Shown piece after piece: positions 10,013 through 33,531 of a DNA stretch of 64,000 nucleotides (position 1 is the stretch's first letter; every line of letters starts with the position of its first letter). The DNA lies in the NCBI RefSeq assembly GCF_024502345.1, contig NZ_JALDNN010000001.1. One strand, given 5' to 3'. Position numbers and translations under genes: made by a program. The notes under the pieces were generated by a model that saw only the letters and a program-made list of their open reading frames with translations, ran no database searches and was not told the DNA's origin. The stretch is from Escherichia coli. Its GTDB lineage: Bacteria > Pseudomonadota > Gammaproteobacteria > Enterobacterales > Enterobacteriaceae.

Positions 10013-10014
10013 AT

Positions 10015-10323: not shown

Positions 10324-10326
10324 GAG

Positions 10327-10529: not shown

Positions 10530-10531
10530 GG

Positions 10532-11774: not shown

Positions 11775-11783
11775 GCAATTCTC

Positions 11784-12329
<546 letters not shown>

Positions 12330-12339
12330 TTAATTATTA

Positions 12340-13632: not shown

Positions 13633-13764
13633 CATATCTCCCTTATCTGGACCGATGGCCCACGATAATTTAGCAGAATGTTAACAAACTAAAATACACA
13701 AAACTACCAGAACCCTGTGGCAACCGGTGCCTGATGTTGACCGTCGGAACAGTCACCATCACGA

Positions 13765-15030
13765 TTACGGTTTGAAGTCCAATGGCGCGTTTTTGAACAC
13801 TTCATATACTGCCTGGCTTGGTGGTTTCGGGATCTTCGCAAGTTTAGCTGCTGCCAACGCAGCCTGACAAAGTGCGGGATCGCCACCTTCAGGTTTGATA
13901 TCCAGTAACATACCATCGGGTGCCAGTTTTATGCGCAGCGTACAGGTTTTGCCTGCATAGGACGATGCGTCATAGAACTTACTTTCGATAGCAGATTTAA
14001 TCTGTCCGGCATAGTTATTGATATCGGCCCCTGATGCGCCATTGTTTTTAGTATTACCACTCCCGGCAGGCGAAGCATTGTTCCCTTTCGCCCCTCCCCC
14101 CGTTTTCGGTGCATTCTTACCAGAGCTTAGCTCACCGAAAATATCATCTGCCTCTGCGGCCGCTTTTGCTGCAGCGGCTTTTTCAGCTGCAGCTTTTGCC
14201 GCTGCCGCTTTTTTGTCTGCGGCGGCTTTTTCTGCCGCTGCTTTCTTATCAGCTGCTGCCTTTTCAGCAGCCGCTTTTTCTGCTGCTTTTTTGTCGGCTG
14301 CAGCTTTCTCTGCTGCCGCTTTCTTATCAGCTGCAGCCTTTTCAGCAGCCGCTTTCTTCTCAGCTTCTGCTTTGGCTTTTTCAGCAGCTTCAGTTGCCGC
14401 TTTCTTTCTTGCTTCAGCTGCAGCTGCTTCTGCCGCTTCCGCTTTCTTCTTCAGTGCCGCAGCGGCTGCCTCGGCTTTTTTCTGCGCTTCGGCTGCGGCT
14501 TTGGCGGCTTCTGCTTCTGCTTTTTTCTTTGCGTCTGCAGCCGCTTTCTTCGCTGCTTCTTCCGCAGCTTTAGCATCTGCTTCGGCCTTCGCTTTAGCAT
14601 CTGCCGCCGCTTTCGCTGCCGCCTCTTCAGCTTGCTTCTGCTTTAACTCGGCCTGTTTTGCGGCTTCTTCAGCCTGCTTTTTCTGCTCCTGAGCCGCTAA
14701 CCGCTCTTTCTCAAGTTGCTTCAGGCGTTCCTGTTCAGCCGCTTGTTTCTCACGCAGTTCTTCAGCAGCCTGCTGTTCCTTCATCTTGCGCTGTTCATCA
14801 GAACGCTTCGCGCTTGATTCCTGGCTTTGCATGCGTTTGTACTGCTCAACTACCGCACCTGAATCAACCATGACAGCGTCGATGGACGAACCACCGCCGC
14901 CTCCGGCTGAAGCTTCTATATTCTCATCGAACGAACTCCAGATCAGCGCCGCAAATAAGATGACATGCAGCACTGCTGAAATAATTATCGCCCGCTTGAG
15001 CTTGTCGTTTTGTTCGGTTGCCTTTGACAC
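13765..15030 (-). CDS. tolA: Tol-Pal system protein TolA
   Basis: 421 aa; N-terminal TM anchor, long Ala/Lys/Glu-rich helical domain II, C-terminal domain. Confidence 0.92.
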   Translation of the reverse strand: MSKATEQNDKLKRAIIISAVLHVILFAALIWSSFDENIEASAGGGGGSSIDAVMVDSGAVVEQYKRMQSQESSAKRSDEQRKMKEQQAAEELREKQAAEQERLKQLEKERLAAQEQKKQAEEAAKQAELKQKQAEEAAAKAAADAKAKAEADAKAAEEAAKKAAADAKKKAEAEAAKAAAEAQKKAEAAAAALKKKAEAAEAAAAEARKKAATEAAEKAKAEAEKKAAAEKAAADKKAAAEKAAADKKAAEKAAAEKAAADKKAAAEKAAADKKAAAAKAAAEKAAAAKAAAEADDIFGELSSGKNAPKTGGGAKGNNASPAGSGNTKNNGASGADINNYAGQIKSAIESKFYDASSYAGKTCTLRIKLAPDGMLLDIKPEGGDPALCQAALAAAKLAKIPKPPSQAVYEVFKNAPLDFKP

Positions 15031-15094
15031 TCTCGGTTTCCAAAAACTGTTCGCCTGTTACCCGCTCTCTTTCAAGCAAGGGAAACGCAGATGT

Positions 15095-15523
15095 TTAGAT
15101 AGGCTGCGTCATTAAACCAACCGATTTCACACCCGCACTATGTAACAAGTTCAGTGCTTTAATTATTTCATCGTAAGGCACATCTTTTGCGCCACCGATC
15201 AGAAAGACCGTTTTCGGGTTGGCCTTGAAACGGCTGGACACTTCCGCCACCACCTGCTCTGGTGGTAAACGCTCCAGGCGATCTTTCTCAACCACCACGG
15301 TGTACTGACCAATACCAGACACTTCAACAATCACTGGCGGATTATCGTTACTGCTCACCGCCTGTGATTCAGTAGCGTCTGGCAGATCGACCTCCACGCT
15401 CTGGGTGATGATGGGCGCTGTCGCCATAAAGATCAGCAACAGCACCAGCAGTACGTCCAGCAACGGTACAATGTTGATTTCGGACTTGAGATCGCGACGA
15501 CCTCGTCCACGCGCTCTGGCCAT
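15095..15523 (-). CDS. tolR: Tol-Pal system protein TolR
   Basis: 142 aa ExbD/TolR family. Confidence 0.92.
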   Translation of the reverse strand: MARARGRGRRDLKSEINIVPLLDVLLVLLLIFMATAPIITQSVEVDLPDATESQAVSSNDNPPVIVEVSGIGQYTVVVEKDRLERLPPEQVVAEVSSRFKANPKTVFLIGGAKDVPYDEIIKALNLLHSAGVKSVGLMTQPI

Positions 15524-15526
15524 GGC

Positions 15527-16620
<1,094 letters not shown>

Positions 16621-16769
16621 TTTACATCCCGGTAATGCAACAAAAGTTAGAGCTTTTAAACGCTGCTACTATACGCGCGCGATTGAGGTTTGGGAATGAG
16701 GGCAAGTTAAGGGAGCGTAAAAATTTATGGGCCTGGAGCGGCCCATAATTTTTTAAAGAGAATTCTGAT

Positions 16770-17063
16770 TTAAAAGAAGAAGAAAATCAGCCCGACAATG
16801 AGAACAATATCGGCAAGCAATGGGCAAAAAATCCCTTGCCAAAGAACCTTCTGCGGACGAAAGCCCACGCCGTGAATCACACCAGCACAGACGGCCCACA
16901 TCAGCAATAAACCATGCCAGATTTCCAGTTCACTGGTCTTCGCGGCAAAACGAGATGGGTCCCAAAACATACATCCTGCTAACAGAAGCGCCATCACGAA
17001 GGAAAGCGCCCGCAGGGGGCGCTTGTCCATTACCGCATACAAAGTCGCGATAATCTTACTCAT
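16770..17063 (-). CDS. ybgE: Small inner-membrane protein of the cyd operon
   Basis: 97 aa hydrophobic protein immediately downstream of cydX. Confidence 0.85.
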   Translation of the reverse strand: MSKIIATLYAVMDKRPLRALSFVMALLLAGCMFWDPSRFAAKTSELEIWHGLLLMWAVCAGVIHGVGFRPQKVLWQGIFCPLLADIVLIVGLIFFFF

Positions 17064-17176
17064 CAGATGTCTTCTTGACCGGCTTTGCCTGATTCGACGT
17101 GTTCAAGCGCCAGCGCGGTGATTACCCCAAACGAACAGGCAAGAAGCGTTCCCAGAATCCATGCGAAATACCACAT
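17063..17176 (-). CDS. cydX: Cytochrome bd-I oxidase accessory subunit CydX (37 aa)
   Basis: Manual translation of minus strand gives MWYFAWILGTLLACSFGVITALALEHVESGKAGQEDI; its stop overlaps the ybgE start; too short to appear in the ORF track. Confidence 0.85.
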   Translation of the reverse strand: MWYFAWILGTLLACSFGVITALALEHVESGKAGQEDI

Positions 17177-17190
17177 TTTTAGCTCCTTAC

Positions 17191-18330
17191 TTAGTACAGA
17201 GAGTGGGTGTTACGTTCAATATCTTCTTTGGTGATACGACCGAACATTTTCCAGTAACACCAGGCGGTGTAGAGCAGAATGATCGGTACCAGAACCACCG
17301 CAACCCAGGTCATGACGTTAAGCGTCAGCTGGCTGGAAGTTGCATCCCACATTGTCAGACTTGCGTTCATCATGGTGCTGGACGGCATCACAAACGGGAA
17401 CATTGCGATACCGGCTGTCAGGATGATGCAGGCCAGCGCCAGGGAGGAGAACACAAACGCCCACGCGGCTTTATCCATACGTGCAGTCAGGATGGTCAGC
17501 AGCGGCAGAACCACACCCAGTGCCGGAATAGCCCACAGAATTGGCGTGTTGTTGAAGTTAACCAGCCATGCGCCAGCTTCACGAACCACTTCTTTATTCA
17601 GTGGGTTAGAGGCTGCGTAATGGTCCATTGTCGATTTCACGACATAACCATCGATACCGTACATCACCCATACGCCAGCCAGTGCGAAACAGACCAGTGT
17701 CACCAGCGCAGCCACCTGAGCCGTTGCACGGGTACGCAGGTGCAGTTCGCCCACGGTACGCATTTGCAGATAGGTTGCGCCCTGAGTAATGATCATCCCT
17801 ACGCTCACCACGCCTGCCAGCAGGCCGAACGGGTTAAGCAACTGGAAGAAGTTACCGGTGTAGTACAGACGCAGATATTCATCAACGTTGAACGGTACGC
17901 CCTGCAACAGGTTACCGAACGCTACACCAATTACCAGCGGCGGAACGAAGCTACCAATGAAGATGCCCCAGTCCCACATGTTACGCCAGCGGGTTTCTTC
18001 AATCTTGGAGCGGTAGTCAAAACCGACCGGACGGAAGAACAAAGACGCCAGCACGAGGATCATCGCCACATAGAAGCCGGAGAACGCAGCGGCATAGACC
18101 ATCGGCCAGGCAGCAAAGAGTGCGCCGCCCGCGGTGATCAGCCAAACCTGGTTACCGTCCCAGTGTGGTGCAATGGAGTTAATCATAATTCGACGCTCGG
18201 TGTCGTTACGACCGAGGAAACGGGTGAGCATGCCCACCCCCATGTCGAAACCGTCAGTGACTGCAAAACCAATCAGCAGAACGCCAACCAGCAGCCACCA
18301 GATAAAACGCAATACTTCATAATCGATCAT
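17191..18330 (-). CDS. cydB: Cytochrome bd-I ubiquinol oxidase subunit II
   Basis: 379 aa polytopic membrane protein. Confidence 0.93.
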   Translation of the reverse strand: MIDYEVLRFIWWLLVGVLLIGFAVTDGFDMGVGMLTRFLGRNDTERRIMINSIAPHWDGNQVWLITAGGALFAAWPMVYAAAFSGFYVAMILVLASLFFRPVGFDYRSKIEETRWRNMWDWGIFIGSFVPPLVIGVAFGNLLQGVPFNVDEYLRLYYTGNFFQLLNPFGLLAGVVSVGMIITQGATYLQMRTVGELHLRTRATAQVAALVTLVCFALAGVWVMYGIDGYVVKSTMDHYAASNPLNKEVVREAGAWLVNFNNTPILWAIPALGVVLPLLTILTARMDKAAWAFVFSSLALACIILTAGIAMFPFVMPSSTMMNASLTMWDATSSQLTLNVMTWVAVVLVPIILLYTAWCYWKMFGRITKEDIERNTHSLY

Positions 18331-18345
18331 TTGACGACTCCTGTC

Positions 18346-19914
18346 TTAGCGTGCCGGCTGAGTAGTCGTGGAAGACTGCTCAAAGTGATAGCGACCGGTT
18401 TTCAGGCTGCTTGGGCCGAGGCGTGCAAACTTGAACATTAAGAACAATTCTGCCACCAGGAACAGGGTATACAGGCCGCAAATCAGCACCATTGAGAAGA
18501 TGAGATCGCCTGCGGTCAGTGACGAGTTCGCCACAGCTGTCGGCAGCACTTCACCGATAGCCCACGGTTGGCGGCCATATTCAGCCACGAACCAGCCCGC
18601 TTCTACAGCAATCCACGGCAGCGGAATACCGTACAGCGCGGCGCGCAGCAGCCATTTTTTCTCGCCAATGCGGTTGCGGATGACACTCCAGAAAGAGAGC
18701 GCGATGATTGCCAGCAGCAGGAAGCCACACGCCACCATGATACGGAACGCGAAGTACAGCGGCGCTACACGCGGAATGGAGTCTTTGGTTGCCTGTTGAA
18801 TCTGCGCTTCAGTCGCATCAGCCACGTTTGGCGTATAGCGTTTCAGCAGCAGACCGTAACCGAGGTCTTTCTTCATGCTATTGAACTGGTCACGAACTGC
18901 CTGGTCGGTAGAACCAGAACGCAGTTGCTCGAGCAGAGAGTACGCCTTCATCCCGTTACGAATGCGTTCTTCATGCTGCACCATCAGTTCTTTCAGGCCG
19001 ATAACTGGAGTATCCACGGAACGCGTTGCAATGATGCCCAGCGCGTAAGGGATCTGGATCGCAAATTTGTTCGTCTCCTCTTCCTGATCAGGAATGCCGA
19101 ACAGAGTAAAGGCAGCAGGCGCAGGTTGCGTTTCCCACTCGGCTTCAATAGCAGCCAGTTTGGTTTTCTGCACGTCGCCCATTTCGTAACCAGATTCATC
19201 ACCCAGAACAATAACAGACAGAACGGCAGCCATACCGAAGCTGGCAGCGATAGCAAAGGAGCGTTTAGCGAAGGCGAAGTCACGACCTTTCAGCATATAC
19301 CATGCGCTGATACCGAGGATGAACATCGCGCCAGTCACATAACCAGACGCTACAGTGTGAACGAATTTCACCTGAGCAACCGGGTTAAGCACCAGCTCGG
19401 AGAAGCTCACCATCTCCATACGCATAGTTTCAAAGTTGAAATCGGACGCGATTGGGTTTTGCATCCAGCCGTTCGCAACCAGAATCCACAGTGCGGACAG
19501 GTTTGAACCGAGCGCCACCAGCCAGGTGACACACATATGCTGAACTTTACCCAGACGATCCCAACCGAAGAAGAACAGACCTACAAAGGTGGATTCGAGG
19601 AAGAAGGCCATCAGACCTTCGATTGCCAGCGGCGCACCGAAGATATCCCCTACATAGTGGGAATAGTAAGACCAGTTAGTCCCGAACTGGAACTCCATGG
19701 TCAGACCGGTAGCCACACCCAGAGCGAAGTTGATACCAAACAACTTGCCCCAGAACTTGGTCATATCTTTATAAATCTGTTTGCCGGAAAGGACGTAGAC
19801 CGTTTCCATAATGGCCAGCAGGAACGCCATACCGAGCGTCAGTGGCACAAAAAGGAAGTGGTACATCGCGGTCAAGGCAAACTGTAAGCGCGACAGTTCG
19901 ACTATATCTAACAT
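18346..19914 (-). CDS. cydA: Cytochrome bd-I ubiquinol oxidase subunit I
   Basis: 522 aa from [12 protein letters not shown]; ORF-track start is one codon upstream. Confidence 0.93.
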
Positions 19915-20251
19915 CATGACTCCTTGCTCATCGCATGAAGACTCCGAGAGTGAACCCCGTTAGAAAGGGTCACACGCATGCCCCAATACAAAATTATTTG
20001 CTCGCCTCTATCGTTGCCATTTCATCAAAAGAGGAAAAGACAATGATAAAAAAGTTACAAATATGTTAATGAATAAACCAAATTGATCCCGTAATTATAT
20101 TACGCCGCAAAATCCTTACAATAAACAGGTTTTTATTGAGCAAATTTGCATTTTTCGACAGTGATCAATTTATAGCGAAATTGTCACGATCTCACCAATT
20201 TGATCTACGACAATTTATCGTGTTTTGCAGATTTTTTTCAAGAATTAAAAA

Positions 20252-20265
20252 TTGATTTATATCAA
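20252..20265. promoter_or_regulatory. FNR-type palindrome in the long AT-rich cydA upstream region
   Basis: Perfect TTGAT-N4-ATCAA (ttgatttatatcaa) about 340 bp upstream of the cydA start codon. Confidence 0.5.
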
Positions 20266-20719
20266 AACCAACCAAATATGTTAATTATGTATAAACCATA
20301 GATCATTGGTGATTTTATTGTTAATTTATTGTGAAATATTTATGCAACACAATTATTACAATGAAAAGGTATAGATAAAAAACCAGTGTTTTATTTAACA
20401 GAACCGCCCAATCAACTTTTTATAATACCAATTGATTAGAGTAGCCAATTTGTTGCTATTTTACATAACATATTTTTATCAAAGTTAATTGATTGTTGCC
20501 TTTATGAGCACCGACCGTAAGCCCGTTATGTTATTGTTTCATTAGTAATAATCACTTAAATGTATCGATGAAACAGGTATGACTTACCGGGAGTGATTGT
20601 TTCTGAGTGAACAGAGGCCACTTTCGCCTGATAAATGAAAAATGAGCGATTTTTGCAAGTTAGTTTTTCTATAGCCGAGTACGCTCAGCGCCTCGCTTGA
20701 TTACAATGAGGTTGCTGCT

Positions 20720-21664
20720 ATGAGTCCTGATAATATCGGTTCGGCTGTCAATCGCTTCTCAGGTTGGCCATCTAATGATCCTCTAAAAACAGATGAAGAA
20801 TCAATGAAATCACCCGTGACTGTGCAAGTAATAAAGATGATTGCCGCCATCCTTGACCCACATCGGATAGTCGTTGGAATTGATACACTTTATACAACGC
20901 AGCGCGAAACATTTACCTCAGAGAGTCAACAGCTCATTGAATCAGCATTGCAAACACTTCATGTGATGAATTTAAATAATCTGGAAACAAATCGCGATGA
21001 AGAAGGTCACTATCTGGCTTTTGAATATAACGTTGACACCTCTGACAGAATAACCGTTTCTGCTTATAATGAAAAAAAGCCTGGCTGCTATGGCCAATGT
21101 CTTTTAATACAGGATGACGAAACAGACTTATTTAACCTGATAAAAATTAAAATTTTCGAAGCCAGGCATAATTATGTCGCTCAATTGATGAGCGATCCGG
21201 AATTTATGTTCAAATTCAGTTATAGCGCTCAACAAAATAGATTAGAACCTCATCTTCTGGTTCCCGCTTATTTCCCTCTAAAAACAAACGAACCGGTTAC
21301 GCAAGAGGATGTACTGTTACTTTATCGTTTCTTTAAAATGAATGATGATTTTAATAAATTAACATCAGAGGAATACATGAGTATCATGACTCCTCTGATG
21401 AAGTGTGAGCGTAGCGTCCACGACAACAACAGGTATGTGACGGGCAAAGATACCCATCTTCTGGACTATCCTCCTTCTGGTAACCAGATACATTTCCATA
21501 TTTTTCCTGACGAATCAGCAACACTAGTCCTTTATTTTTCAAACAATGACCTTGAATGTTTCGTCTTTGAAAGAGATATTCCTAGCCAGTATCGCTTTTT
21601 CAAAATGTTTACCAATCTGGCACTGGTTATAGATCAGTTAACCGAAGCCAATAAAATACTTTAA
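20720..21664 (+). CDS. Hypothetical protein, 314 aa, low-GC, no recognisable domain
   Basis: Long ORF with GAGG RBS 9 nt upstream; GC visibly lower than flanking core genes; polar Ser/Thr/Asn-rich N-terminus; absent from the K-12 arrangement. Confidence 0.6.
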   Translation: MSPDNIGSAVNRFSGWPSNDPLKTDEESMKSPVTVQVIKMIAAILDPHRIVVGIDTLYTTQRETFTSESQQLIESALQTLHVMNLNNLETNRDEEGHYLAFEYNVDTSDRITVSAYNEKKPGCYGQCLLIQDDETDLFNLIKIKIFEARHNYVAQLMSDPEFMFKFSYSAQQNRLEPHLLVPAYFPLKTNEPVTQEDVLLLYRFFKMNDDFNKLTSEEYMSIMTPLMKCERSVHDNNRYVTGKDTHLLDYPPSGNQIHFHIFPDESATLVLYFSNNDLECFVFERDIPSQYRFFKMFTNLALVIDQLTEANKIL

Positions 21665-21744
21665 TTTTCTATATATCCCTATGGCAAATATTGCTAAACA
21701 ATGCCTGGGGATTAATTTTTATTACTCACGGAAAGATTTAAATA

Positions 21745-22167
21745 ATGATACCATCTCAGATCTCTTTCAATACCCTTCCAGTCAATGCAACATACGCTTC
21801 AGAGACAACAGTTGACACACAAAAATTCTCTGACATCCTCTACTCAGCGGGGTGTTCCCTAAAGGATATGGCTTATCTGAGCAGATGTCTGGCATCAATA
21901 CACCCGACTCTCGCCAAAAACATTTATGAAACAGAAAATCTCAGCGATCAAAAATTACTGCATATTGATTGCCGTAGTACAAATGACATCAAGATAAATA
22001 TCTTTTTTGGTCAGCAACGAGAAGGATTAATTGAAATTAGTTCTGACACAGTTATTTTTTCGATACTGTCTTCATTGATTGACTCCGCCATTTCTAAATT
22101 TCAACATCAAAACCCCGTTAACGGTTCAGTTAATCCTGAACTATTGTATAAGGATTATACTGATTAA
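21745..22167 (+). CDS. Hypothetical protein, 140 aa, low-GC
   Basis: ORF 80 bp downstream of the 314 aa ORF, same strand and same composition; Ser/Thr/Ile-rich N-terminus. Confidence 0.5.
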   Translation: MIPSQISFNTLPVNATYASETTVDTQKFSDILYSAGCSLKDMAYLSRCLASIHPTLAKNIYETENLSDQKLLHIDCRSTNDIKINIFFGQQREGLIEISSDTVIFSILSSLIDSAISKFQHQNPVNGSVNPELLYKDYTD

Positions 22168-22714
22168 ACCCACCCAGTCGCGAAAAATGGCCTGCGTTAT
22201 TGCCAGACGTAATAAAACCGTTGATTAACGTTACTCATACTGGTAGCACCTTCATGTACCTCTCTTTTTTACGAAAAATCAAAAGAGCTAACTAAGGTCA
22301 TAATTCGCATGAATCATTAACCATTTGTTATTTTCAACATTATTTTTACATTAAGCAGAAATGAATTGCAGTGAAATTCGACTTAAATCTTATGAAATGC
22401 ATTTACTCATGGCTAAAACCACGTCACAAAAATGCAAATTAGAAGTAGATCACAATTATCTCAATACATTAAATCAAGTTAATTTTAAAAATTTAACATT
22501 CATGTCATTAGTTGACATAACACACTGAATTAACATGGAAATTTAAAAACACACTTTAAACAATCATTTCCCGAAAGACATTTTGAAAATAGATCAATTG
22601 CAACATTACGGTCAGATAAAGACACTCCTGTGATATTAAACCTGTGCCGTTATGAACGGCCATAAATACGACGTGTGTAACTTATTTTACTCTCTGTCTT
22701 ACAAAGGATTACCC

Positions 22715-23164
22715 ATGAAGAAAGCAACACTTGTGATTGGCGTTATTGGCGCGGACTGCCATGCAGTAGGCAATAAAGTTCTGGACCGCGTTTTTAGCAA
22801 CCACGACTTCAGAGTCATTAATCTGGGCGTAATGGTCAGCCAGGACGAATATATTGATGCTGCCATCGAAACTGGCGCTGACGCGATTATCGTCTCCTCT
22901 ATCTATGGGCATGGCGATATCGACTGTCTGGGCATGCGCGAACGCTGCATCGAGCGTGGACTGGGTGACATCCTCCTCTATGTGGGCGGTAACCTGGTGG
23001 TCGGAAAACATGACTTCGCTGACGTGGAAACCAAGTTCAAAGAGATGGGATTTGATCGCGTCTTTGCCCCAAGTCATGACTTAGAAGATGTTTGTCAGCT
23101 GATGGCCCACGATATCAATCAACGTCATGACGTTGATACTCGTATTCTTGAAGAGGCTATCTGA
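22715..23164 (+). CDS. glmS: Glutamate mutase (methylaspartate mutase) S subunit, B12-binding
   Basis: 149 aa from [22 protein letters not shown] (cobalamin-binding DxHxxG-type motif); RBS aagga upstream; ORF-track start at 22652 is an extension. Confidence 0.85.
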
Positions 23165-24552
23165 TGCAAATCGTCTCTGTCGATATTGGATCGACGTGGA
23201 CCAAAGCTGCCCTCTTCACCCGGGAGGGGGACGCGTTAACGTTGGTTAACCACGTACTGACCCCAACCACCACCCATCATCTGGCGAAGGGGTTTTTCTC
23301 CAGCCTGAACCAGGTGTTAAACGTAGATAATGCCCTCCCCCTGTTAAACAGCGGTGAGGTTGCATTGAAGTATTCCTCCTCTGCCAAAGGTGGGCTGGCG
23401 GTTGCCGCAATGGGATTGGTGCCTTCTATCACCCTGGAAACCGCGAAAGTAACCGCTCACTCTGCGGGGGCTAAAATTGCGCAATATTACGCCTACAAGC
23501 TGAACCGCCGTGATATCCAGGCACTGGAAGAAACGCAGCCCGATATTCTCTTGTTCACCGGCGGCACCGACGGCGGAGAAGAAAGCTACGGACTGAATAA
23601 CGCCCGTGTGCTGGCAGAATCCAAACTCGACTGCGCCATTATTTATGCCGGAAACCGGGATATTCAGGACGAGGTGCAGGAGATCCTCGGGCATAAAGAC
23701 CTGACCATCGTCGACAATGTTCTGCCCGATCTTGACCATCCGAACCCTTTAGCCGCACGCCAGGCTATTTGCGACATATTCCTTAAACGCATCGTTAAAG
23801 GGAAAGGGCTGGATGTCATTGTTGATAAAACAGGCGAAGAACCAATGCCGACACCATGGACGGTCTTTGAACTGGTCAAGGCAATCAGTAACGTCGATCA
23901 CAGCTGGAAAGAGTTCATGCTGATCGACATGGGCGGCGCAACCACCGATGTTTATTCCGCCGGTGCCAACACGCTCTCGCCCGACACCGTTTTACACGGC
24001 GTACCGGAACCCTTCGTAAAACGGACGGTGGAAGGCGATCTGGGAATGCGCGTCTCGGCAGTGGTGGTTGGTGAAAGTGCGAAAGAGTTAGTCAATGTGA
24101 ATTTTGCTCAGCAACCCGCACAGCTGGACGCTTTTTATCATTACCTCCGTCATCTAGTCGCTCATCCCGACTACTTACCCGCAAATGCAGAAGAGAAATA
24201 TTTCGATACCGTCCTGGCCGGACTGTGTGTGGGTTATGCCACCGAAAGACATGCGGGCACCAAAAAAGAGGTCTGCACCTGCGTCGGCAATGTCGATTTA
24301 CAGATGGGACGTGACCTGACAACCGTGCGTAAAGTCGTCGGATCCGGCGGATGGCTCTCGCGTGCCAGTCAGTTCGATATGCATCACTGGTTGAAATACC
24401 GCGAGTTAAACGACGACGGTAAACGCATTCTCTTACCGACCGAATTTGAATATTACCGCGATTCCCGGGGGCTATTACCACTGCTGGCAAACGTCGCCAG
24501 AGTCGATCCGCTGGCCGCCGCGCGCACCAGTATTCAATGCTTAACCCTATAA
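23164..24552 (+). CDS. glmL: Glutamate mutase-associated protein GlmL (MutL-like)
   Basis: 462 aa; start overlaps the glmS stop (ATGA); sits between the S and E subunits as in clostridial glutamate mutase operons. Confidence 0.8.
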   Translation: MQIVSVDIGSTWTKAALFTREGDALTLVNHVLTPTTTHHLAKGFFSSLNQVLNVDNALPLLNSGEVALKYSSSAKGGLAVAAMGLVPSITLETAKVTAHSAGAKIAQYYAYKLNRRDIQALEETQPDILLFTGGTDGGEESYGLNNARVLAESKLDCAIIYAGNRDIQDEVQEILGHKDLTIVDNVLPDLDHPNPLAARQAICDIFLKRIVKGKGLDVIVDKTGEEPMPTPWTVFELVKAISNVDHSWKEFMLIDMGGATTDVYSAGANTLSPDTVLHGVPEPFVKRTVEGDLGMRVSAVVVGESAKELVNVNFAQQPAQLDAFYHYLRHLVAHPDYLPANAEEKYFDTVLAGLCVGYATERHAGTKKEVCTCVGNVDLQMGRDLTTVRKVVGSGGWLSRASQFDMHHWLKYRELNDDGKRILLPTEFEYYRDSRGLLPLLANVARVDPLAAARTSIQCLTL

Positions 24553-24570
24553 CAATTAAGGCTGCAATCA

Positions 24571-26016
24571 ATGGAACTTCGAAATAAGAAATTAACCCAT
24601 GACGAATTCATGACCGAGCGGCAACAGGTACTGAAAACCTGGGAAACCGGCAAGGATGTTGAAAACTTTGAAGATGGCGTTAAATACCAACAAAACATTC
24701 CTGAGCATAAACGCTTCTCTCATGCCCTGCTGAAAGCAGACAAGGAAGGTAAAACCCTTAGCCAACCGCGCGCAGGTGTGGCGCTGATGGACGAACACAT
24801 CGAACTGCTGAAAACACTACAAGAAGAGTGCGATCTGCTGCCAAGCACCATCGATGCATATACCCGTCTGAATCGGTACGAAGAAGCGGCTGTAGGGATT
24901 AAAAAATCCATCGAAGCCGGAACCTCTAAACTGAACGGTTTACCGGTAGTTAACCATGGTGTCGCAGCTTGCCGTCGCCTCACCGAAACCCTGCAAAAAC
25001 CGCTACAGATCCGCCACGGCACGCCAGATGCGCGTCTGCTGGCTGAAATCTCAATGGCCAGCGGCTTTACCAGTTATGAAGGCGGTGGCATTTCCTACAA
25101 CATTCCGTATGCCAAACGTGTAACGCTGGAAAAATCGATCCGCGACTGGCAGTACTGCGACCGTTTAATGGGGATGTACGAAGAACACGGGATCCGCATC
25201 AACCGCGAACCGTTTGGCCCACTAACGGGTACGCTGATCCCGCCGTTTATCTCGCACTCTATCGCGATAATCGAAGGCTTGCTGGCGCTGGAACAGGGTG
25301 TGAAATCTATCACCGTTGGTTATGGCCAGGTCGGCAGCCTGACGCAGGATGTTGCGGCGATCCAGTCTCTGCGTGAACTTGCACACGAATACTTTCAGAG
25401 CTATGGCTATACCGACTATGAATTAAGTACCGTGTTTCACCAGTGGATGGGCGGCTTTCCGGAAGACGAATCGAAAGCGTTCGCTATTATCTCCTGGGGC
25501 GCAGCCGTCGCGGGGATGTCTGGTGCCACCAAACTCATCACCAAAAGTCCGCACGAAGCCTGGGGCATTCCGACTGCCGCTGCCAACATTCAGGGGCTGA
25601 AAGCCTCCCGCCAGATGCTCAACATGGTCAATGAGCAGAAATTCCCGCCGTGCCCTGCGGTTGAACTGGAAATTGAACTGATTAAGAGCGAGGTTCGCGC
25701 AGTACTGAATAAAGTGTTCGAACTGGGTAATGGTGATATTGCGCGCGGAACGGTGCTGGCATTTGAAGCGGGCGTACTGGATGTGCCGTTTGCGCCAGCC
25801 GCCTGCAACGCGGGCAAAATTCTTCCGGTCCGTGACAACACCGGCGCGATACGCGTACTGGAAGCCGGAGCCGTTCCATTGCCAAAAGATATTCTCGACC
25901 TCCACCACGATTACGTTGCGGAACGCGCACGCTGTGAAGGACGCCAACCGACATTCCAGATGGTTGTAGATGACATCAATGCTGTATCCCACAGTAAATT
26001 AATAGGAAGACCATAA
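24571..26016 (+). CDS. glmE: Glutamate mutase (methylaspartate mutase) E subunit
   Basis: 481 aa, typical E-subunit size and operon position. Confidence 0.85.
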   Translation: MELRNKKLTHDEFMTERQQVLKTWETGKDVENFEDGVKYQQNIPEHKRFSHALLKADKEGKTLSQPRAGVALMDEHIELLKTLQEECDLLPSTIDAYTRLNRYEEAAVGIKKSIEAGTSKLNGLPVVNHGVAACRRLTETLQKPLQIRHGTPDARLLAEISMASGFTSYEGGGISYNIPYAKRVTLEKSIRDWQYCDRLMGMYEEHGIRINREPFGPLTGTLIPPFISHSIAIIEGLLALEQGVKSITVGYGQVGSLTQDVAAIQSLRELAHEYFQSYGYTDYELSTVFHQWMGGFPEDESKAFAIISWGAAVAGMSGATKLITKSPHEAWGIPTAAANIQGLKASRQMLNMVNEQKFPPCPAVELEIELIKSEVRAVLNKVFELGNGDIARGTVLAFEAGVLDVPFAPAACNAGKILPVRDNTGAIRVLEAGAVPLPKDILDLHHDYVAERARCEGRQPTFQMVVDDINAVSHSKLIGRP

Positions 26017-27257
26017 TGAAAATAAAACAGGCCCTGTTCACCGCTGGCTATTCCTCATTCTATTTCGATGACCAGCAGGCGATAAAAAACGGAGCGGGTC
26101 ATGACGGCTTTTTTTATACCGGGGAGCCGGTAACACAGGGGTTTAACGCCGTTCGTCAGGCCGGGGAGTGCGTATCGGTACAGTTGATTCTGGAAAACGG
26201 CGCGGTCGCCGTAGGTGACTGTACTGCCGTACAGTATTCCGGGGCAGGCGGTCGCGATCCACTGTTCCTCGCAGAGCACTTTATTCCGTTCCTCAACGAC
26301 CATATCAAGCCATTACTGGTAGGCCGCGATGTGGATGCTTTCCTGCCGAATGCCCGTTTCTTCGACAAATTGCGTATTGACGGCAACTTGCTGCATACCG
26401 CCGTGCGCTACGGATTATCACAGGCGCTGCTTGATGCTACCGCGCTGGCAACCGGCCGTCTGAAAACTGAAGTGGTCTGTGATGAATGGCAGTTGCCACG
26501 CGTGGCGGAATCCATTCCATTATTTGGTCAGAGCGGCGACGATCGATATATCGCCGTCGATAAGATGATCCTTAAAGGCATCGACGTGCTGCCCCATGCG
26601 CTGATTAATAACGTCGAAGAGAAGCTGGGCTTTAAAGGTGAAAAACTGCGCGAATATGTCCACTGGCTGTCGGATCGCATTCTGAGCAAGCGCACCAGCG
26701 CACGCTACCACCCAACCCTGCACATCGATGTATACGGCACTATCGGTCTGATCTTCGATATGGATCCGCTTCGCTGTGCGCAATACATCGCCAGCCTGGA
26801 AAAAGAAGCGCAAGGCCTGCCGCTCTACATCGAAGGGCCGGTCGATGCCGGTAACAAGCCCGATCAAATTCGCCTGCTGACCGCGATTACCAAAGAGCTG
26901 ACGCGCCTCGGTTCCGGCGTGAAAATTGTGGCCGATGAATGGTGTAACACCTACCAGGATATTGTTGATTTCACTGATGCTGCCAGTTGTCACATGGTGC
27001 AAATCAAAACCCCGGATCTGGGCAGTATTCACAACATCGTCGATGCGGTTCTTTACTGCAACAGCCACAGCATGGAAGCGTACCAGGGCGGCACCTGCAA
27101 TGAAACTGATGTCAGTGCCCGCACCTGTGTCCACGTCGCCCTTGCCGCTCGCCCTATGCGTATGCTGGTAAAACCAGGGATGGGCTTTGACGAAGGCCTC
27201 GATATCGTCTTCAACGAAATGAATCGTACTATCGCGCTGTTGCAGGCTAAGGATTAA
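26016..27257 (+). CDS. mal: 3-Methylaspartate ammonia-lyase (methylaspartase)
   Basis: 413 aa; N-terminus (FYFDDQ.AIK.GAGHDGF.YTG ... AVQYSGAGGRDPLFLA) closely resembles clostridial methylaspartase (enolase superfamily). Confidence 0.9.
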   Translation: MKIKQALFTAGYSSFYFDDQQAIKNGAGHDGFFYTGEPVTQGFNAVRQAGECVSVQLILENGAVAVGDCTAVQYSGAGGRDPLFLAEHFIPFLNDHIKPLLVGRDVDAFLPNARFFDKLRIDGNLLHTAVRYGLSQALLDATALATGRLKTEVVCDEWQLPRVAESIPLFGQSGDDRYIAVDKMILKGIDVLPHALINNVEEKLGFKGEKLREYVHWLSDRILSKRTSARYHPTLHIDVYGTIGLIFDMDPLRCAQYIASLEKEAQGLPLYIEGPVDAGNKPDQIRLLTAITKELTRLGSGVKIVADEWCNTYQDIVDFTDAASCHMVQIKTPDLGSIHNIVDAVLYCNSHSMEAYQGGTCNETDVSARTCVHVALAARPMRMLVKPGMGFDEGLDIVFNEMNRTIALLQAKD

Positions 27258-27260
27258 CAA

Positions 27261-28631
27261 ATGGCTCGTTCTTTTAAAGTCTTATCGCCAACGGCAATCC
27301 TCGGGTATGGATTCCCGGAAGAGAGCTTCCGCAAAGCGATGGCAGAATCGCCCGATCTGATCGCCGTTGATGCAGGCTCTTCCGATCCAGGCCCCCACTA
27401 CCTCGGGGCAGGCAAACCGTTTACCGATCGCGCAGGGGTCAAGCGCGATCTGCGCTATATGATCACCGCAGGCGTGCAAAATAATATACCGGTGGTGATC
27501 GGAACGGCTGGCGGTTCTGGTGCCGCACCACACCTGGAGTGGTGCCGAGAAATAATTCATGAGATTGCCCGGGAAGAGCACCTCTCGTTCTCGATGGCGC
27601 TGATCCCGGCAGACGTTGACAAAGCCATCGTCCACCAGGCGCTGGATAACGGCAAAATCACGGCGCTGGAGTTTGTCCCGCCGTTAACCCACGACGCGAT
27701 TGACGAAAGTACGTATATCGTCGCGCAAATGGGCATCGAACCCTTCCAGCGTGCGCTAAAAGAAGGCGCGCAAGTGGTGCTGGGTGGGCGCGCTTACGAC
27801 CCGGCCTGCTTTGCTGCGCTACCGATCATGCAAGGCTTTGATGAAGGTCTGGCGCTGCATTGTGGGAAAATCCTTGAGTGCGCAGCAATCGCCGCAACGC
27901 CCGGCTCAGGCTCTGACTGTGCGATGGGCATCATTGATGACAACGGCTTTACGCTGAAGACATTTAATCCGAAGCGTAAATTTACCGAAACGTCAGCAGC
28001 TGCACACACACTGTATGAGAAATCCGATCCTTACTTCCTGCCAGGACCTGGCGGCGTGTTGAATCTGAAAGGCTGCACATTTAAAGCGGTCAATAACGGC
28101 GAAGTGTACGTCAGCGGTTCTAAGCATGAAGAAACGCCGTATGCCCTGAAACTGGAAGGTGCACGACGGGTGGGCTTCCGCTGTCTGACCATCGCCGGAA
28201 CGCGCGACCCGATTATGATCGCCGGGATCGATAAAATCATCGATGAAGTCAAAACCAGCGTTTCGCGTAACCTGTCGCTCGACGATGACAGCATTCGCAT
28301 CAATTTCCACCTGTACGGCAAAAACGGGGTGATGGGAGACCATGAACCGATGCAAACTGCCGGGCATGAGCTGGGGATTGTCCTTGATGTAGTTGCACCG
28401 ACCCAGGAAATTGCCAACAGCGTTTGCTCGCTGGTGCGCTCTACCATGCTGCACTACGGCTATGAAAACCGCATCGCTACCGCAGGCAATCTGGCGTTCC
28501 CGTTCTCCCCTTCTGATATCCAGGGCGGGCCGGTATACGAATTTTCCATATATCACCTGATTGAAGCCAACGACGCTCTGCGTTTTGATTTCCATATTGA
28601 ACAGGTGACGCCAGAAGGAGTTCAGGCATGA
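27261..28631 (+). CDS. Uncharacterised conserved protein (tentatively AtuA-like/DUF1446 type), translationally coupled to mal
   Basis: 456 aa ORF starting 3 nt after the mal stop; normal GC; family assignment is from memory and needs an HMM search. Confidence 0.7.
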   Translation: MARSFKVLSPTAILGYGFPEESFRKAMAESPDLIAVDAGSSDPGPHYLGAGKPFTDRAGVKRDLRYMITAGVQNNIPVVIGTAGGSGAAPHLEWCREIIHEIAREEHLSFSMALIPADVDKAIVHQALDNGKITALEFVPPLTHDAIDESTYIVAQMGIEPFQRALKEGAQVVLGGRAYDPACFAALPIMQGFDEGLALHCGKILECAAIAATPGSGSDCAMGIIDDNGFTLKTFNPKRKFTETSAAAHTLYEKSDPYFLPGPGGVLNLKGCTFKAVNNGEVYVSGSKHEETPYALKLEGARRVGFRCLTIAGTRDPIMIAGIDKIIDEVKTSVSRNLSLDDDSIRINFHLYGKNGVMGDHEPMQTAGHELGIVLDVVAPTQEIANSVCSLVRSTMLHYGYENRIATAGNLAFPFSPSDIQGGPVYEFSIYHLIEANDALRFDFHIEQVTPEGVQA

Positions 28632-28945
28632 AACAGTCAATTGTCTCACTGGCGCAAGTCATTCGTTCGAAAAATGCCGGACCTTACGAACTGGTTTTAG
28701 ATATTTTATTTAAAACGAAAGAAAACTATGAGCGAGTTAAATCATCAGGGCAATTAACCCCAGAACTGATTGCGCGCTTATATCATGTTGAACCTGACTT
28801 TATTCATCGTATTGTCTGGTTTGATCCTTCTAACGCAGTAAAAATCGTCATGCCACGAGATATTATCTCCGGGAATGTAGGTGACAATGATGTCTATGGT
28901 GCACAGCAACATGCACCTTTATTAAATATGAGTTTCGATTTGTAA
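28628..28945 (+). CDS. Small uncharacterised protein (tentatively DUF4387 type), overlaps upstream gene by 4 nt
   Basis: 105 aa ORF with ATGA overlap to the 456 aa ORF; last gene of the operon. Confidence 0.6.
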   Translation: MKQSIVSLAQVIRSKNAGPYELVLDILFKTKENYERVKSSGQLTPELIARLYHVEPDFIHRIVWFDPSNAVKIVMPRDIISGNVGDNDVYGAQQHAPLLNMSFDL

Positions 28946-29084
28946 AAATCCGAATACTTTTAGCCAACTGACATCCCGTCACTTATTACAGTTCAACACT
29001 TCAGCTATTTGTAAGGTTGTAATAGCAGGTAGATGCCTGAATCTCTATTCAGGCATCTACTTCTCCTGATTCTGATTTATCGCC

Positions 29085-29378
29085 GTGCACCTGATGGAGG
29101 AAAAAATGAAGAAAATAAGTTTAACCACGATGATTCTTTTGGCGCTGGTACTTGGAATGATTATCGGCGTAGTGCTCAATAACACTGTTTCACCGGAAAC
29201 AGCAAAACTCTATGCGCAAGAAATATCGATATTCACGACGATTTTCTTACGACTGATAAAAATGATTATCGCTCCGTTAGTGGTCTCTACCCTGGTGGTA
29301 GGTATTGCTAAAATGGGAGATGCCAAAGCCCTTGGTCGTATTTTTTCTAAAACACTCTTTTTATTTATTTGCGCCTCA
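29085..29378 (+). pseudogene. 5' fragment (about 98 codons) of a GltP/DctA-family dicarboxylate/amino-acid:cation symporter, truncated by IS1
   Basis: N-terminus [23 protein letters not shown]...[30 protein letters not shown] matches the conserved first TM segments of GltP-type symporters; frame runs into the IS1 left end and stops at 29405. Confidence 0.8.
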
Positions 29379-29433
29379 GGTGATGCTGCCAACTTACTGA
29401 TTTAGTGTATGATGGTGTTTTTGAGGTGCTCCA

Positions 29434-29709
29434 GTGGCTTCTGTTTCTATCAGCTGTCCCTCCTGTTCAGCTACTGACGGGGTGGTGCGTAACGGCAAAA
29501 GCACCGCCGGACATCAGCGCTATCTCTGCTCTCACTGCCGTAAAACATGGCAACTGCAGTTCACTTACACCGCTTCTCAACCCGGTACGCACCAGAAAAT
29601 CATTGATATGGCCATGAATGGCGTTGGATGCCGGGCAACCGCCCGCATTATGGGCGTTGGCCTCAACACGATTTTCCGCCATTTAAAAAACTCAGGCCGC
29701 AGTCGGTAA
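29434..29709 (+). CDS. insA: IS1 InsA protein
   Basis: 91 aa [43 protein letters not shown]... Confidence 0.95.
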
Positions 29710-30131
29710 CCTCGCGCATACAGCCGGGCAGTGACGTCATCGTCTGCGCGGAAATGGACGAACAGTGGGGATACGTCGGGGCTAAATCGCGCCAGCGCTG
29801 GCTGTTTTACGCGTATGACAGGCTCCGGAAGACGGTTGTTGCGCACGTATTCGGTGAACGCACTATGGCGACGCTGGGGCGTCTTATGAGCCTGCTGTCA
29901 CCCTTTGACGTGGTGATATGGATGACGGATGGCTGGCCGCTGTATGAATCCCGCCTGAAGGGAAAGCTGCACGTAATCAGCAAGCGATATACGCAGCGAA
30001 TTGAGCGGCATAACCTGAATCTGAGGCAGCACCTGGCACGGCTGGGACGGAAGTCGCTGTCGTTCTCAAAATCGGTGGAGCTGCATGACAAAGTCATCGG
30101 GCATTATCTGAACATAAAACACTATCAATAA
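29628..30131 (+). CDS. insB: IS1 InsB reading frame (expressed as InsAB' transposase by -1 frameshift)
   Basis: 167 aa ORF in the -1 frame overlapping the insA 3' end; classic IS1 organisation. Confidence 0.9.
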
Positions 30132-30146
30132 GTTGGAGTCATTACC

Positions 30147-30555
30147 AATCGCCGTTATTAGCTAAAGAATGAATATTAACAATAATATCGGGATGTAACT
30201 TTGTGAATTCATGTAAATTTGGGATTAACCAGTGGGTACTAAAAGTAGGATTAACGGCAAGTTCAATAACCTGAACCGTAGGCTGCCAGGTCATAATGGT
30301 ATTGGTATCGCGTTCCAGCTTATTTAATGTTTCTTTTACTATCCCCAGGTAATACTTCCCTGCATCATTAAGAAAAATGCGTTTTTTAGAGTGTGAAAAT
30401 AACGGAGTACGTAAAAATTCCTCCAGCGCACTTACTTGTCTGAATACTGCACTTTGGGTTAACGCTAACTCCTCTGCCGCTCTGGTATAACTTTCATGAC
30501 GTGCGACGACCTCAAAAGTCACCAGCAGTTCCGTTTTAGGTATTTTCCCTCGCAT
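30147..30555 (-). pseudogene. 5' fragment (about 136 codons) of a LysR-family transcriptional regulator, truncated by IS1
   Basis: N-terminal HTH typical of LysR (TFEVVARHESYTRAAEELALTQSAVFRQVSALEEFL); reading frame runs into the IS1 right end. Confidence 0.8.
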
Positions 30556-31107
30556 AATGCCGTCCCTTAAAAATAGTTTAAACCATCAAAAATACATTAC
30601 TTATTACGAAGTAATGGTAACAAAGCAGCAATAAATAATTTATAAGAATCATGATTGACATTTATAAACCAGTAAGGCTGGCGTGACAAATATCTTAATC
30701 AGATAATAATAATCCGAAAAGCACAGCGCCTTTCGAATTATCCGGAATCACATTAAGTGAAAATTATTAAATTGATATCATTTATCATATCTGTGGATAT
30801 TATGATAAACAATCAACAAAGATTTTATTTTTGATTTATAGCATATCCATCTAAGAATTTTTGCGATGCTGCAATATCCGGGGTAAAGACCCGATCCTGG
30901 CTGACAAATGGCACGACTTGACGAAAAGCGGTGAACATCGCTTTTGTTGATTTACTTAACGCTACGGTCAAACGCTGGGAAGCCAGTGCATCAGGTAACG
31001 ATTCGAAATTCGCCGTCGTTCTTATTCGTGGCTTGCGGTCGGTCGCGGCAATCCACAGTGGCTGTGGTCATGCAGTCAAGCCTGCAGTCAGATTTCGACC
31101 GTGGTTA

Positions 31108-31140
31108 ACCGTTTAAGGTATAAAAAAGGCCATCATACGA
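31108..31140 (-). terminator. Rho-independent terminator downstream of sucD
   Basis: Minus-strand hairpin ggccatcgtatgatggcc followed by TTTTTTAT. Confidence 0.65.
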
Positions 31141-31220
31141 TGGCCAACCATGTCGAAACCGACAGCCCTTCGCCATTCCTGTAGAGGGAAGCGGCGAGGG
31201 CTATTTCTTATTACAGATAT
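31110..31220 (-). ncRNA. sdhX: Possible SdhX (RybD) sRNA from the sucD 3' UTR
   Basis: About 100 nt between the sucD stop and the terminator, the position where the 3'-UTR-derived sRNA lies in K-12; sequence identity not verified. Confidence 0.4.
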
Positions 31221-32090
31221 TTATTTCAGAACAGTTTTCAGTGCTTCACCGATATCCGCCAGGCTGCGAACGGTTTTCACGCCTGCGGCTTCCAGAGCAG
31301 CGAATTTCTCATCCGCAGTCCCTTTCCCACCGGCAATGATGGCACCCGCGTGGCCCATACGTTTGCCTTTCGGCGCAGTCACACCAGCGATGTAACCCAC
31401 AACTGGCTTGGTAACGTGCTCTTTGATGTACGCAGCTGCTTCTTCTTCAGCGCTACCGCCGATCTCACCGATCATCACGATCGCTTCGGTCTGCGGATCT
31501 TTTTCGAACATTTCGAGAATGTCGATAAAGTTAGAGCCAGGGATCGGGTCACCGCCGATACCGACACAGGTCGACTGACCGAAACCGTAATCCGTGGTCT
31601 GTTTAACCGCTTCATAGGTCAGTGTACCGGAACGGGAAACGATACCCACTTTACCCGGTTTGTGAATGTGACCCGGCTGGATACCGATTTTGCATTCACC
31701 CGGAGTGATAACGCCCGGGCAGTTCGGGCCGATCATACGAACGCCGGCTTCGTCCAGTTTCACTTTCACAGTCAGCATATCCAGCGTCGGGATGCCTTCA
31801 GTGATGGTGATAATCAGTTTGATGCCTGCATCAATAGCTTCCAGAATGGAGTCTTTGCAGAACGGTGCTGGTACGTAGATAACAGAAGCGGTAGCGCCAG
31901 TAGCAGCAACAGCTTCACGCACGGTGTTGAACACCGGCAGGCCGAGGTGGGTAGTACCGCCTTTACCTGGGGTTACGCCGCCAACCATTTTAGTGCCGTA
32001 TGCAATGGCCTGTTCTGAGTGGAAAGTCCCCTGGCTACCAGTAAAGCCCTGGCAGATAACCTTGGTGTTTTTATCAATTAAAATGGACAT
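31221..32090 (-). CDS. sucD: Succinyl-CoA synthetase alpha subunit
   Basis: 289 aa. Confidence 0.95.
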
Positions 32091-33256
32091 TATTTCCCCT
32101 CCACTGCGGCAACAACCTGCTGAGCTGCATCCGTCAGACCTTTTGCTGCAATAATATTCAGGCCGCTGTCAGCCAGTTTCTTCGCGCCGAGTTCGGCGTT
32201 GTTACCTTCCAGACGTACCACGACCGGTACGTTAACACCCACTTCTGCTACCGCGCCGATGATACCGTCAGCGATCAGGTCGCAACGAACGATACCGCCG
32301 AAGATGTTAACCAGAACGGCTTTCACTTTGTCGTCAGAGAGGATGATTTTGAACGCTTCGGTTACACGTTCTTTGGTTGCGCCGCCGCCAACGTCAAGGA
32401 AGTTAGCCGGTTCGCCGCCGTGCAGTTTAACGATGTCCATCGTACCCATCGCCAGACCTGCGCCGTTAACCATACAACCGATGTTACCGTCCAGCGCAAC
32501 GTAGTTCAGTTCCCACTGTGCAGCCTGTGCTTCACGCGGATCTTCCTGCGACTGGTCACGCATTTCGCGCAGATCAGGCTGGCGGAACAGTGCGTTGCCA
32601 TCAGCGCCCAGTTTGCCGTCGAGGCAAATCAGATCGCCCTGTTTGGTAATGACCAGCGGGTTGATTTCGATCAGCGCCAGGTCACGCTCCAGGAAAATGG
32701 TCGCCAGGCCCATGAAGATTTTGGTGAACTGCTGAACCAGTTTACCTTCCAGACCCAGTTTGAACGCCAGCTCGCGTCCCTGATACGGCATCGGGCCAGT
32801 CAGCGGATCAAGCGCAACTTTGTGGATCAGGTGCGGAGTTTCTTCCGCCACTTTTTCGATTTCCACGCCGCCTTCGGTAGAGGCCATAAAGACCACGCGA
32901 CGTGAACTACGGTCTACAACGGCACCGAGATACAGCTCTTTAGCGATATCGGTCGCCGCTTCAACCAGAATCTGGTTAACCGGTTGGCCATTGGCATCTG
33001 TTTGATACGTTACCAGACGCTTGCCCAGCCAGTTTTCTGCAAAAGCACGGATGTCTTCTTTACTGTTTACAACTTTCACACCGCCCGCTTTACCGCGGCC
33101 ACCAGCGTGAACCTGACATTTCACTACCCACGGACCGGCACCGATTTTTGAAGCGGCTTCTTCTGCTTCGCGCGGAGTAGTACAGGCATAACCCACCGGT
33201 GCTGGTAAGCCATAGCGGGCAAAAAGTTGTTTTGCCTGATATTCATGTAAGTTCAT
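32090..33256 (-). CDS. sucC: Succinyl-CoA synthetase beta subunit
   Basis: 388 aa ([16 protein letters not shown]...); stop overlaps the sucD start. Confidence 0.95.
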
Positions 33257-33329
33257 GTGTTCTGTCCATCCTTCAGTAATCGTTATCTTTTAAACCGTAG
33301 ACCGAATATTTCGTATCGCTTCCGGGTAT

Positions 33330-33525
33330 TGTCGGTCACCCGTAGGCCTGATAAGACGTGTAAGCGTCGCATCTGGCATCGCTTGTCGGATGCGGCGCGA
33401 GCGCCTTATCCGACCTACATCGGTGCTTCCCGTAGGCCTGATAAGACGCGTTAAGCGTCGCATCAGGCTTCAATTGCCGGAGAAGGCGATAATGTCTTAT
33501 CCGGTCTACAGTGCAGGTGAAACTT
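33330..33525. repeat. BIME/REP cluster in the sucB-sucC intergenic region
   Basis: Repeated gcctgataagacg...cgcatc palindromic units. Confidence 0.6.
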
Positions 33526-33531
33526 AAACTA

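Follow-up and report, generated by a model that had tools for sequence, protein, structure and literature searches.

Positions 30825–31121 of the window, by which we mean the whole 64,000-nucleotide stretch of E. coli DNA analyzed here, are very probably a non-functional composite deletion scar, put together as a four-piece mosaic from the remnants of a lyase gene and an RtcB gene. The scar measures 297 bp, reaches from a stop codon to the SdhX terminator, and comprises two lyase pieces on the minus strand and two pieces of an RtcB 3' end on the plus strand. The unannotated "ORF" at this site is best understood as a pseudogene scar of chimeric make-up; such scars are familiar, and this one is newly resolved here.

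Four gene remnants next to the SdhX terminator

A sensitive blastn search with positions 30825–31121 against 5426 complete E. coli genomes yielded three groups of matches. The 297 bp are matched in 1134 genomes, 832 of them over the full length. In a second group, positions 1–194 of the 297 bp align at ~86% under an annotated full-length "HAL/PAL/TAL family ammonia-lyase", and in a third, positions 198–294 lie under an "RtcB family protein". The intact lyase gene occurs in 145 of the 5426 genomes (~2.7%), among them IAI39 and ST648. Only this comparison at the nucleotide level led to the full-length gene; word-indexed protein searches with the 80-aa frame or with the remnant from E. whittamii described below did not find a full-length relative.

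According to the RefSeq annotation of E67 (locus L005) and IAI39 (locus L007, NC_011750.1), the intact order in window orientation is cobO (+), LysR (–), lyase (–, 556 aa), hutG, hutI, hutD, an NCS1 "cytosine permease", hutU (–), RtcB (+), and SdhX/sucD (–). The hut/lyase operon covers positions 11001–18742 of the IAI39 locus and is also present in E67. In intact strains, the RtcB gene is convergent with the SdhX terminator side, and in IAI39 its stop codon abuts the terminator. The window segments and their counterparts are listed in Table 1.

Table 1. Features around the scar in the window and their counterparts in E. coli IAI39 (coordinates of locus L007, NC_011750.1, unless stated otherwise)
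Feature	Window position	Strand	Counterpart and remarks
IS1 copy, 768 bp	29379–30146	+	replaces 3.9 kb of the island (6412–10321)
LysR 5' fragment	30147–30555	–	10322–10730, 99.0%
Lyase–LysR spacer	30556–30824	none	10731–11000, 85.6%
Lyase 3' remnant, last 45 codons and TAA	30825–30962	–	11001–11138, blastn 85.5%; residues 511/512–556 of 556
Lyase internal piece, residues 378–397, TANFESLPDALASQRLTVAL	30958–31018	–	11482–11542, blastn 86.9%
3-bp filler, junction of the ~9.08 kb deletion	31019–31021	none	without IAI39 counterpart
RtcB internal remnant	31022–31078	+	20624–20680, 89.5%; 6EVA (L006) 5001–5057, 88%; tblastn E 3.8e-8
2-bp filler	31079–31080	none	without IAI39 counterpart
RtcB 3' terminal remnant	31081–31121	+	20856–20897 (matched to window 31122), ~84%
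SdhX region / sucD 3' UTR	31122–31220	–	20898–20995 vs window 31123–31220, 98%
sucD	31221–32090	–	20996–21865, 97.9%

Between the two lyase pieces, 348 bp (116 codons) are deleted in frame, and the break lies at ~5 bp of imperfect microhomology, AACGC. Compared with the intact lyases WP_012602238.1 (IAI39, gene ECIAI39_RS03515) and WP_001361287.1 (E67), positions 30825–31018 retain 85–90% amino-acid identity, and the remnant occupies the same place, upstream of the same LysR gene with the same spacer in between. Its nucleotide sequence, however, is ~14% diverged from every intact copy found. Homology to the HAL/PAL/TAL family (PF00221) was found for the window remnant by tblastn and for the orthologous remnant of E. 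whittamii by Pfam. The adjoining ~9.08 kb deletion took the 5' part of the lyase, hutG, hutI, hutD, the NCS1 permease, hutU, and ~1.1 kb of the RtcB gene (IAI39 L007 11543–20623).

On the other side of this deletion, positions 31022–31121 (+) correspond to residues ~375–394 and ~451–466 of the intact RtcB-family RNA ligase paralogue of IAI39, WP_000546469.1. The internal piece translates to YSWLAVGRGNPQWLWSCSQ compared with YSWLAVGCGNPEWLWSCSH in the intact protein, and the C-terminal piece to KPAVRFRPWLTV compared with HPAVRFRPWLTFKA, each running into a stop codon. A 175-bp deletion inside the RtcB gene precedes the 3' terminal remnant, in which a 1-nt insertion shifts the stop forward to 31114–31116. 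Altogether, ~1.3 kb of the 1.4-kb gene is gone, yet the RtcB C-terminus adjoins the SdhX terminator exactly as in IAI39. Both homology and colinearity with the intact locus identify these pieces as an RtcB-family remnant; the intact neighbor itself matches RtcB NCBIfam models (E 1.8e-59) below the equivalog cut-off. A MAFFT alignment with E. whittamii had suggested a hutU vestige at 31022–31078, but blastn and tblastn against the intact loci assign this segment to RtcB, and the hutU piece exists only in E. whittamii.

The 80-codon reading frame

The preliminary description had reported a stop-free minus-strand frame of about 80 codons ending at 30825–30827. Translation of 30825–31118 gives exactly 80 sense codons (31067 to 30828, stop TAA at 30825–30827) with the sequence PQPLWIAATDRKPRIRTTANFESLPDALASQRLTVALSKSTKAMFTAFRQVVPFVSQDRVFTPDIAASQKFLDGYAINQK, whose C-terminal peptide is exactly the one quoted there. 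Upstream of these codons, a TGA at 31068–31070 closes the frame. The claim that no plausible start exists except an internal Met likewise stands, apart from a TTG at 30971, which defines a 48-aa ORF (30825–30971). No Shine–Dalgarno motif is visible by eye before the TTG or the internal ATG.

The length of the frame does not exceed chance, since 234 stop-free runs of at least 80 codons were counted in the six frames of the window; hence, the case for the frame rests on homology. Its first 16 codons are antisense RtcB sequence and the following 64 derive from the lyase. In tblastn with the IAI39 lyase, residues 511–556 match window positions 30965–30828 (E 5.5e-23) and residues 378–397 match 31016–30957 (E 5e-7). 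The absence of protein homology had been named beforehand as grounds for giving up the idea of a gene remnant, and these matches remove that objection. Thus, the frame can be regarded as what is left of the 3' end of a gene that lost its 5' part, but only for its C-terminal ~64 codons, which come from two separate pieces of the lyase; the N-terminal 16 codons belong to another gene, read in antisense. The many runs of similar length and the lack of a significant Pfam match for the 80-aa translation of the window would both suit a chance open frame in non-coding DNA. Set against the specific homology to the lyase and RtcB, colinear with the intact loci, this explanation retains virtually no probability.

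A word-indexed search of the 80-aa translation against 5.8 billion proteins matched only short Escherichia ORFs. Some of these bear the name "histidine ammonia-lyase", and a 99-aa entry of E. whittamii is called "aromatic amino acid lyase". All catalytic regions of the lyase are absent from the window, where ~64–65 of 556 codons are left, with neither a complete ~500-aa domain nor a proper start.

In some of six aligned E. coli, TGG replaces the TGA, and PGAP then calls an 84-aa hypothetical protein (WP_001309348.1, strain PK8261). Together with the openness of the frame over 80 codons in the window and NCBI entries of 48, 64, and 84 aa, this call could point to a genuine small protein-coding gene of ~48–84 aa. 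We consider such a gene very unlikely: the TGA closes the ATG-started version in the window, the TTG and the internal ATG lack a visible Shine–Dalgarno motif, and the frame, a fusion of sense lyase and antisense RtcB sequence, begins ~50 nt past the strong SdhX terminator, directly downstream of it. Further, the frame carries a 1-nt frameshift in strain STN0717-11 and has lost its stop codon in other database records, and most RefSeq annotations leave it unannotated. The six aligned E. coli also differ by the amino-acid replacements F>Y, D>E, and A>E. Neither a start with a ribosome-binding site nor a frame kept among strains, as would mark a small ORF, was found. In all likelihood, the frame is not expressed as a protein, although it is possible that the scar keeps a residual role as a small protein or regulatory RNA.

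The lyase lost from the window

The character of the lost enzyme may be gathered from its intact relatives. The N-terminus of the intact 556-aa lyase, MKGLIRRVTVTVVLWSVCSIAMA followed by KS, is signal-peptide-like and ends in AMA. In place of the MIO-forming G-ASG-D motif (GASGD) of HAL, the protein carries GSIGAADIML; the window has lost the segment in question. Among solved structures, the closest relative of the intact lyase is the ergothionase of T. denticola (6s7j, E 5.5e-85), while P. putida HAL follows at ~1e-49. The intact lyase fails the HutH equivalog TIGR01225 with 278.9 bits vs a cut-off of 539.15 bits. In the same operon, hutU, hutI, and hutG pass their equivalog cut-offs, the thiourocanate hydratase model fails (670 vs 930 bits), and a canonical hutH is absent.

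The genuine hutU, hutI, and hutG, the shared family PF00221, and the name "histidine ammonia-lyase" given to some NCBI entries would also be expected if the remnant came from a canonical HutH in an ordinary histidine-utilization operon, as in Salmonella or Klebsiella. This origin is improbable given that the intact relative reaches 279 instead of 539 bits, has no Ala-Ser-Gly MIO motif, begins with a signal-peptide-like segment, and is much closer to ergothionase than to HAL. Moreover, its periplasmic MIO-less relatives in Shewanella have been shown to be trimethylammonia-lyases, with histidine betaine, ergothioneine, or N(pi)-methyl histidine betaine as substrate (bioRxiv 10.1101/2025.08.13.670108, 10.64898/2026.04.22.720169). 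Judged from these sequence features, the lost lyase was probably a periplasmic MIO-less trimethylammonia-lyase.

Such enzymes differ in substrate according to the residue that stands in place of ergothionase Lys384, which is itself essential for the thiolate (bioRxiv 10.1101/2025.08.13.670108, 10.64898/2026.04.22.720169). At this position, the intact E. coli lyase has Ile/His (SLHIPF vs TIQKTF), where the only nearby Lys in 6s7j was counted at 383, one off the published 384. Like Swoo_3913, SO_3057, and SO_3299, the periplasmic histidine-betaine trimethylammonia-lyases of Shewanella, the E. coli protein is MIO-less and has a predicted N-terminal export signal. In contrast to these Shewanella-type enzymes, which cluster with a periplasmic urocanate reductase, it clusters with cytoplasmic hutU, hutI, and hutG and an NCS1 permease. 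The lack of the MIO motif, the predicted export, and the neutral residue at the Lys384 position are compatible with a lyase of the histidine-betaine type. The most economical reading is that such a lyase would yield urocanate and trimethylamine, and that the urocanate pathway would then lead to glutamate beside the fermentation island.

On this basis, we tentatively propose that the scar may be the footprint of a lost pathway that is still alive in ~2.7% of E. coli. In this pathway, trimethylamine and urocanate would arise in the periplasm from histidine betaine (hercynine), or from a related trimethylated histidine, through an exported MIO-less lyase of the HAL family. The urocanate would enter the cell via the NCS1 permease and be turned into glutamate by HutU, HutI, and HutG, to be fermented by the methylaspartate island; as a whole, this scheme has somewhat less than even chances of being correct. 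An operon for urocanate degradation, with an ergothionase-like, MIO-less lyase of predicted export at its head, would once have been linked to the O157:H7-type glutamate-fermentation island; phylogroup-F-type strains, IAI39 and ST648 among them, still possess this operon intact. The intact E. coli lyase is a concrete candidate for the release of trimethylamine from histidine betaine or ergothioneine. If this assignment is true, E. coli gains a genetically defined trimethylamine-producing betaine lyase, and most island-bearing strains, including O157:H7 and the strain of the window, lost the upstream half of a two-module route from histidine betaine to pyruvate and acetate. According to a 2026 review, E. 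coli has no annotated ergothionase homologue, and the 1962 report of this activity is open to doubt (PMC13405746).

Among GTDB species representatives, the intact lyase was matched only in a Citrobacter MAG (98%), Sutterella/Turicimonas (57%), Serratia (~44%), and the E. whittamii scar. With the 99-aa remnant as query of an exhaustive HMMER search, the HAL-family proteins retrieved did not exceed 56% identity.

Boundary, ancestry, and neighborhood of the scar

From 33000 down to 31122, the window is colinear with K-12 in blastn, and position 31122 corresponds to K-12 765148, at the 3' end of the annotated sdhX (765050–765150). Homology to K-12 resumes only at 20290, upstream of cydA. With K-12 as the reference, homology starting at 31122 puts the sucD-side limit of the accessory segment at 31121/31122; the scar has its right edge here, at the base of the SdhX terminator. 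This intrinsic terminator consists of a hairpin at 31128–31145 (–) and a T-tract down to ~31119 (terminator scan). An Rfam scan of 30400–31400 returned no family at E ≤ 1, SdhX included, and the SdhX assignment accordingly relies on the K-12 annotation and the alignment.

The preliminary description had sought the sucD-side junction within 30556–31107 and proposed the frame, together with the AT-rich spacer at 30556–30824, as its possible mark. The composition was described correctly (28.3% GC vs 51.2% for the whole window), but the junction lies beyond the 31107 limit. As the spacer is colinear with the lyase–LysR intergenic region of intact strains, it is native island sequence and not a junction. 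The hairpin it contains at 30708–30742 (–), with a 15-bp stem and a fold z-score of –4.2, possibly served to terminate transcription of the former operon, and the LysR promoter presumably lies in the spacer as well. At ~30611, the window has a private 1-nt deletion compared with five other E. coli (GCTTT-GTTACC).

MngR had also been put forward as a source of the frame. In K-12, mngR directly follows SdhX, and the region could in principle be a remnant of MngR or of the K-12 sequence downstream of sucD. However, tblastn with K-12 MngR gave no match at E ≤ 10 in 30400–31300, blastn homology to K-12 ends at 31122, mngRAB is absent from 14000–33000, and mngR would be on the other strand. We therefore discount a K-12-type remnant almost completely and retain the lyase–RtcB mosaic as the explanation of the segment.

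Several other arrangements exist at the same locus. K-12 and E. coli W, the latter possibly a historical ergothionase strain, carry only mngRAB and no island. Strain 6EVA (NZ_CP138428.1) carries mngRAB, an intact RtcB gene, 464 bp, and then LysR, without hut genes. The 464 bp between LysR and RtcB (L006 3305–3768) show no match to the IAI39 hut region or the window and could be an "empty site" or another scar. In E. whittamii, this site is occupied by a scar (JAINCF010000042.1 7522–8300) of different make-up: 115 bp of the RtcB 3' end, ~130 bp (7723–7852) that matched nothing among the sequences compared, a 134-bp internal piece of hutU, and 315 bp of the lyase 3' end. The hutU fragment (GKWILTAGLGGMG..., IDFRLRTRYL) is fused to the lyase 3' end, and the resulting lyase remnant of 99 aa, longer than that of the window, matches Pfam PF00221 at positions 402–466 of 466 (E 5e-10). 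This scar arose independently of the one in the window. Thus, at least five structural variants plus two independent scars coexist at the sucD–cydA locus of Escherichia.

The ancestral state of the window locus would have consisted of the SdhX terminator followed by RtcB, the hutU–permease–hutD–hutI–hutG–lyase operon (–), LysR, and the glutamate-fermentation island. Three deletions would have shrunk ~9.9 kb between the RtcB gene start and the lyase stop codon to 297 bp: an in-frame loss of 348 bp from the lyase gene, one of ~9.08 kb reaching from there into RtcB, and one of 175 bp in RtcB itself. By chance, the surviving lyase pieces are in frame and the adjoining antisense RtcB sequence is free of stops, which leaves the 80-codon frame. 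The scar junctions are identical in the six aligned E. coli, including O157:H7, which suggests a single origin of the scar and subsequent inheritance or spread.

The scar block differs from its surroundings in its degree of divergence. Compared with intact E. coli alleles, positions 30556–31121 are 85–89% identical, whereas the flanks reach 98–99% (LysR 99%, SdhX/sucD 98%). The 64 lyase-derived codons show 17 synonymous and 12 non-synonymous differences (dS 0.52, dN 0.087), while dS in the flanking sucD, AtuA, and LysR is 0.03–0.09. In the scar segments, identity is 92–100% among the intact E. coli alleles and the E. whittamii remnant but ~86% between each of them and the window, placing the scar block as an outgroup even to the E. 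whittamii copy. Based on the ~86% identity in the block vs 98–99% in the flanks and the corresponding dS values, the scar would descend from a deeply diverged allele of the operon. Most of the divergence of this allele appears to have built up under purifying selection (dN/dS about 0.17), and the locus reads as a recombination mosaic with breakpoints at gene boundaries, namely, the LysR start codon and the SdhX terminator. Neither the 5426 E. coli genomes nor the GTDB species representatives nor the protein searches yielded an intact copy of the scar's own allele, and for this reason we infer the order and timing of the deletions as well as the source of the allele. The LysR gene of E. whittamii is only 85% identical to that of E. 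coli.

In place of the mngR–mngA–mngB of K-12, the window carries ~10.8 kb of accessory DNA (20291–31121) with glmS/L/E, mal, an AtuA-family gene (DUF1446), a DUF4387 gene, a gltP-like symporter gene, fumD, cobO, and a LysR-type regulator. The scar lies at the LysR (LTTR) end of the glutamate-fermentation cluster (methylaspartate pathway) that was described for O157:H7 (Kronen & Berg, 2015; PMC4682846). Histidine does not occur in that paper (PMC4682846), which thus appears not to describe a hut-type operon or remnant at the LysR end. O157:H7 genomes carry the same 665-bp sucD–LysR interval as the window.

Unlike the published O157:H7 cluster, that of the window is additionally cut by IS1. In place of the symporter 3' part, fumD, cobO, and the 3' half of LysR, the IS1 copy stands directly between the first 273 bp of the gltP-like symporter gene and LysR codon ~137. 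The broken regulator is left as a 5' fragment in a 137-codon ORF (30142–30555; Pfam HTH_1, E 1.6e-17). IS1 lacks a target-site duplication, its 9-bp flanks at 29370–29378 and 30147–30155 being different (TGCGCCTCA and AATCGCCGT), which points to an IS1-mediated deletion or to IS1–IS1 recombination. The IS1/LysR junction occurs in none of the 5426 complete E. coli genomes, and the strain may belong to a Shigella-like, IS1-rich lineage.

Beyond sucD, the sucB–sucC gap (33257–33531) varies in length, with ~275 bp in the window, 94 bp in O157:H7 PV15-279, and 366 bp in XH990. Short ORFs in this gap read like translated REP/BIME repeats (…LIRPTG…).
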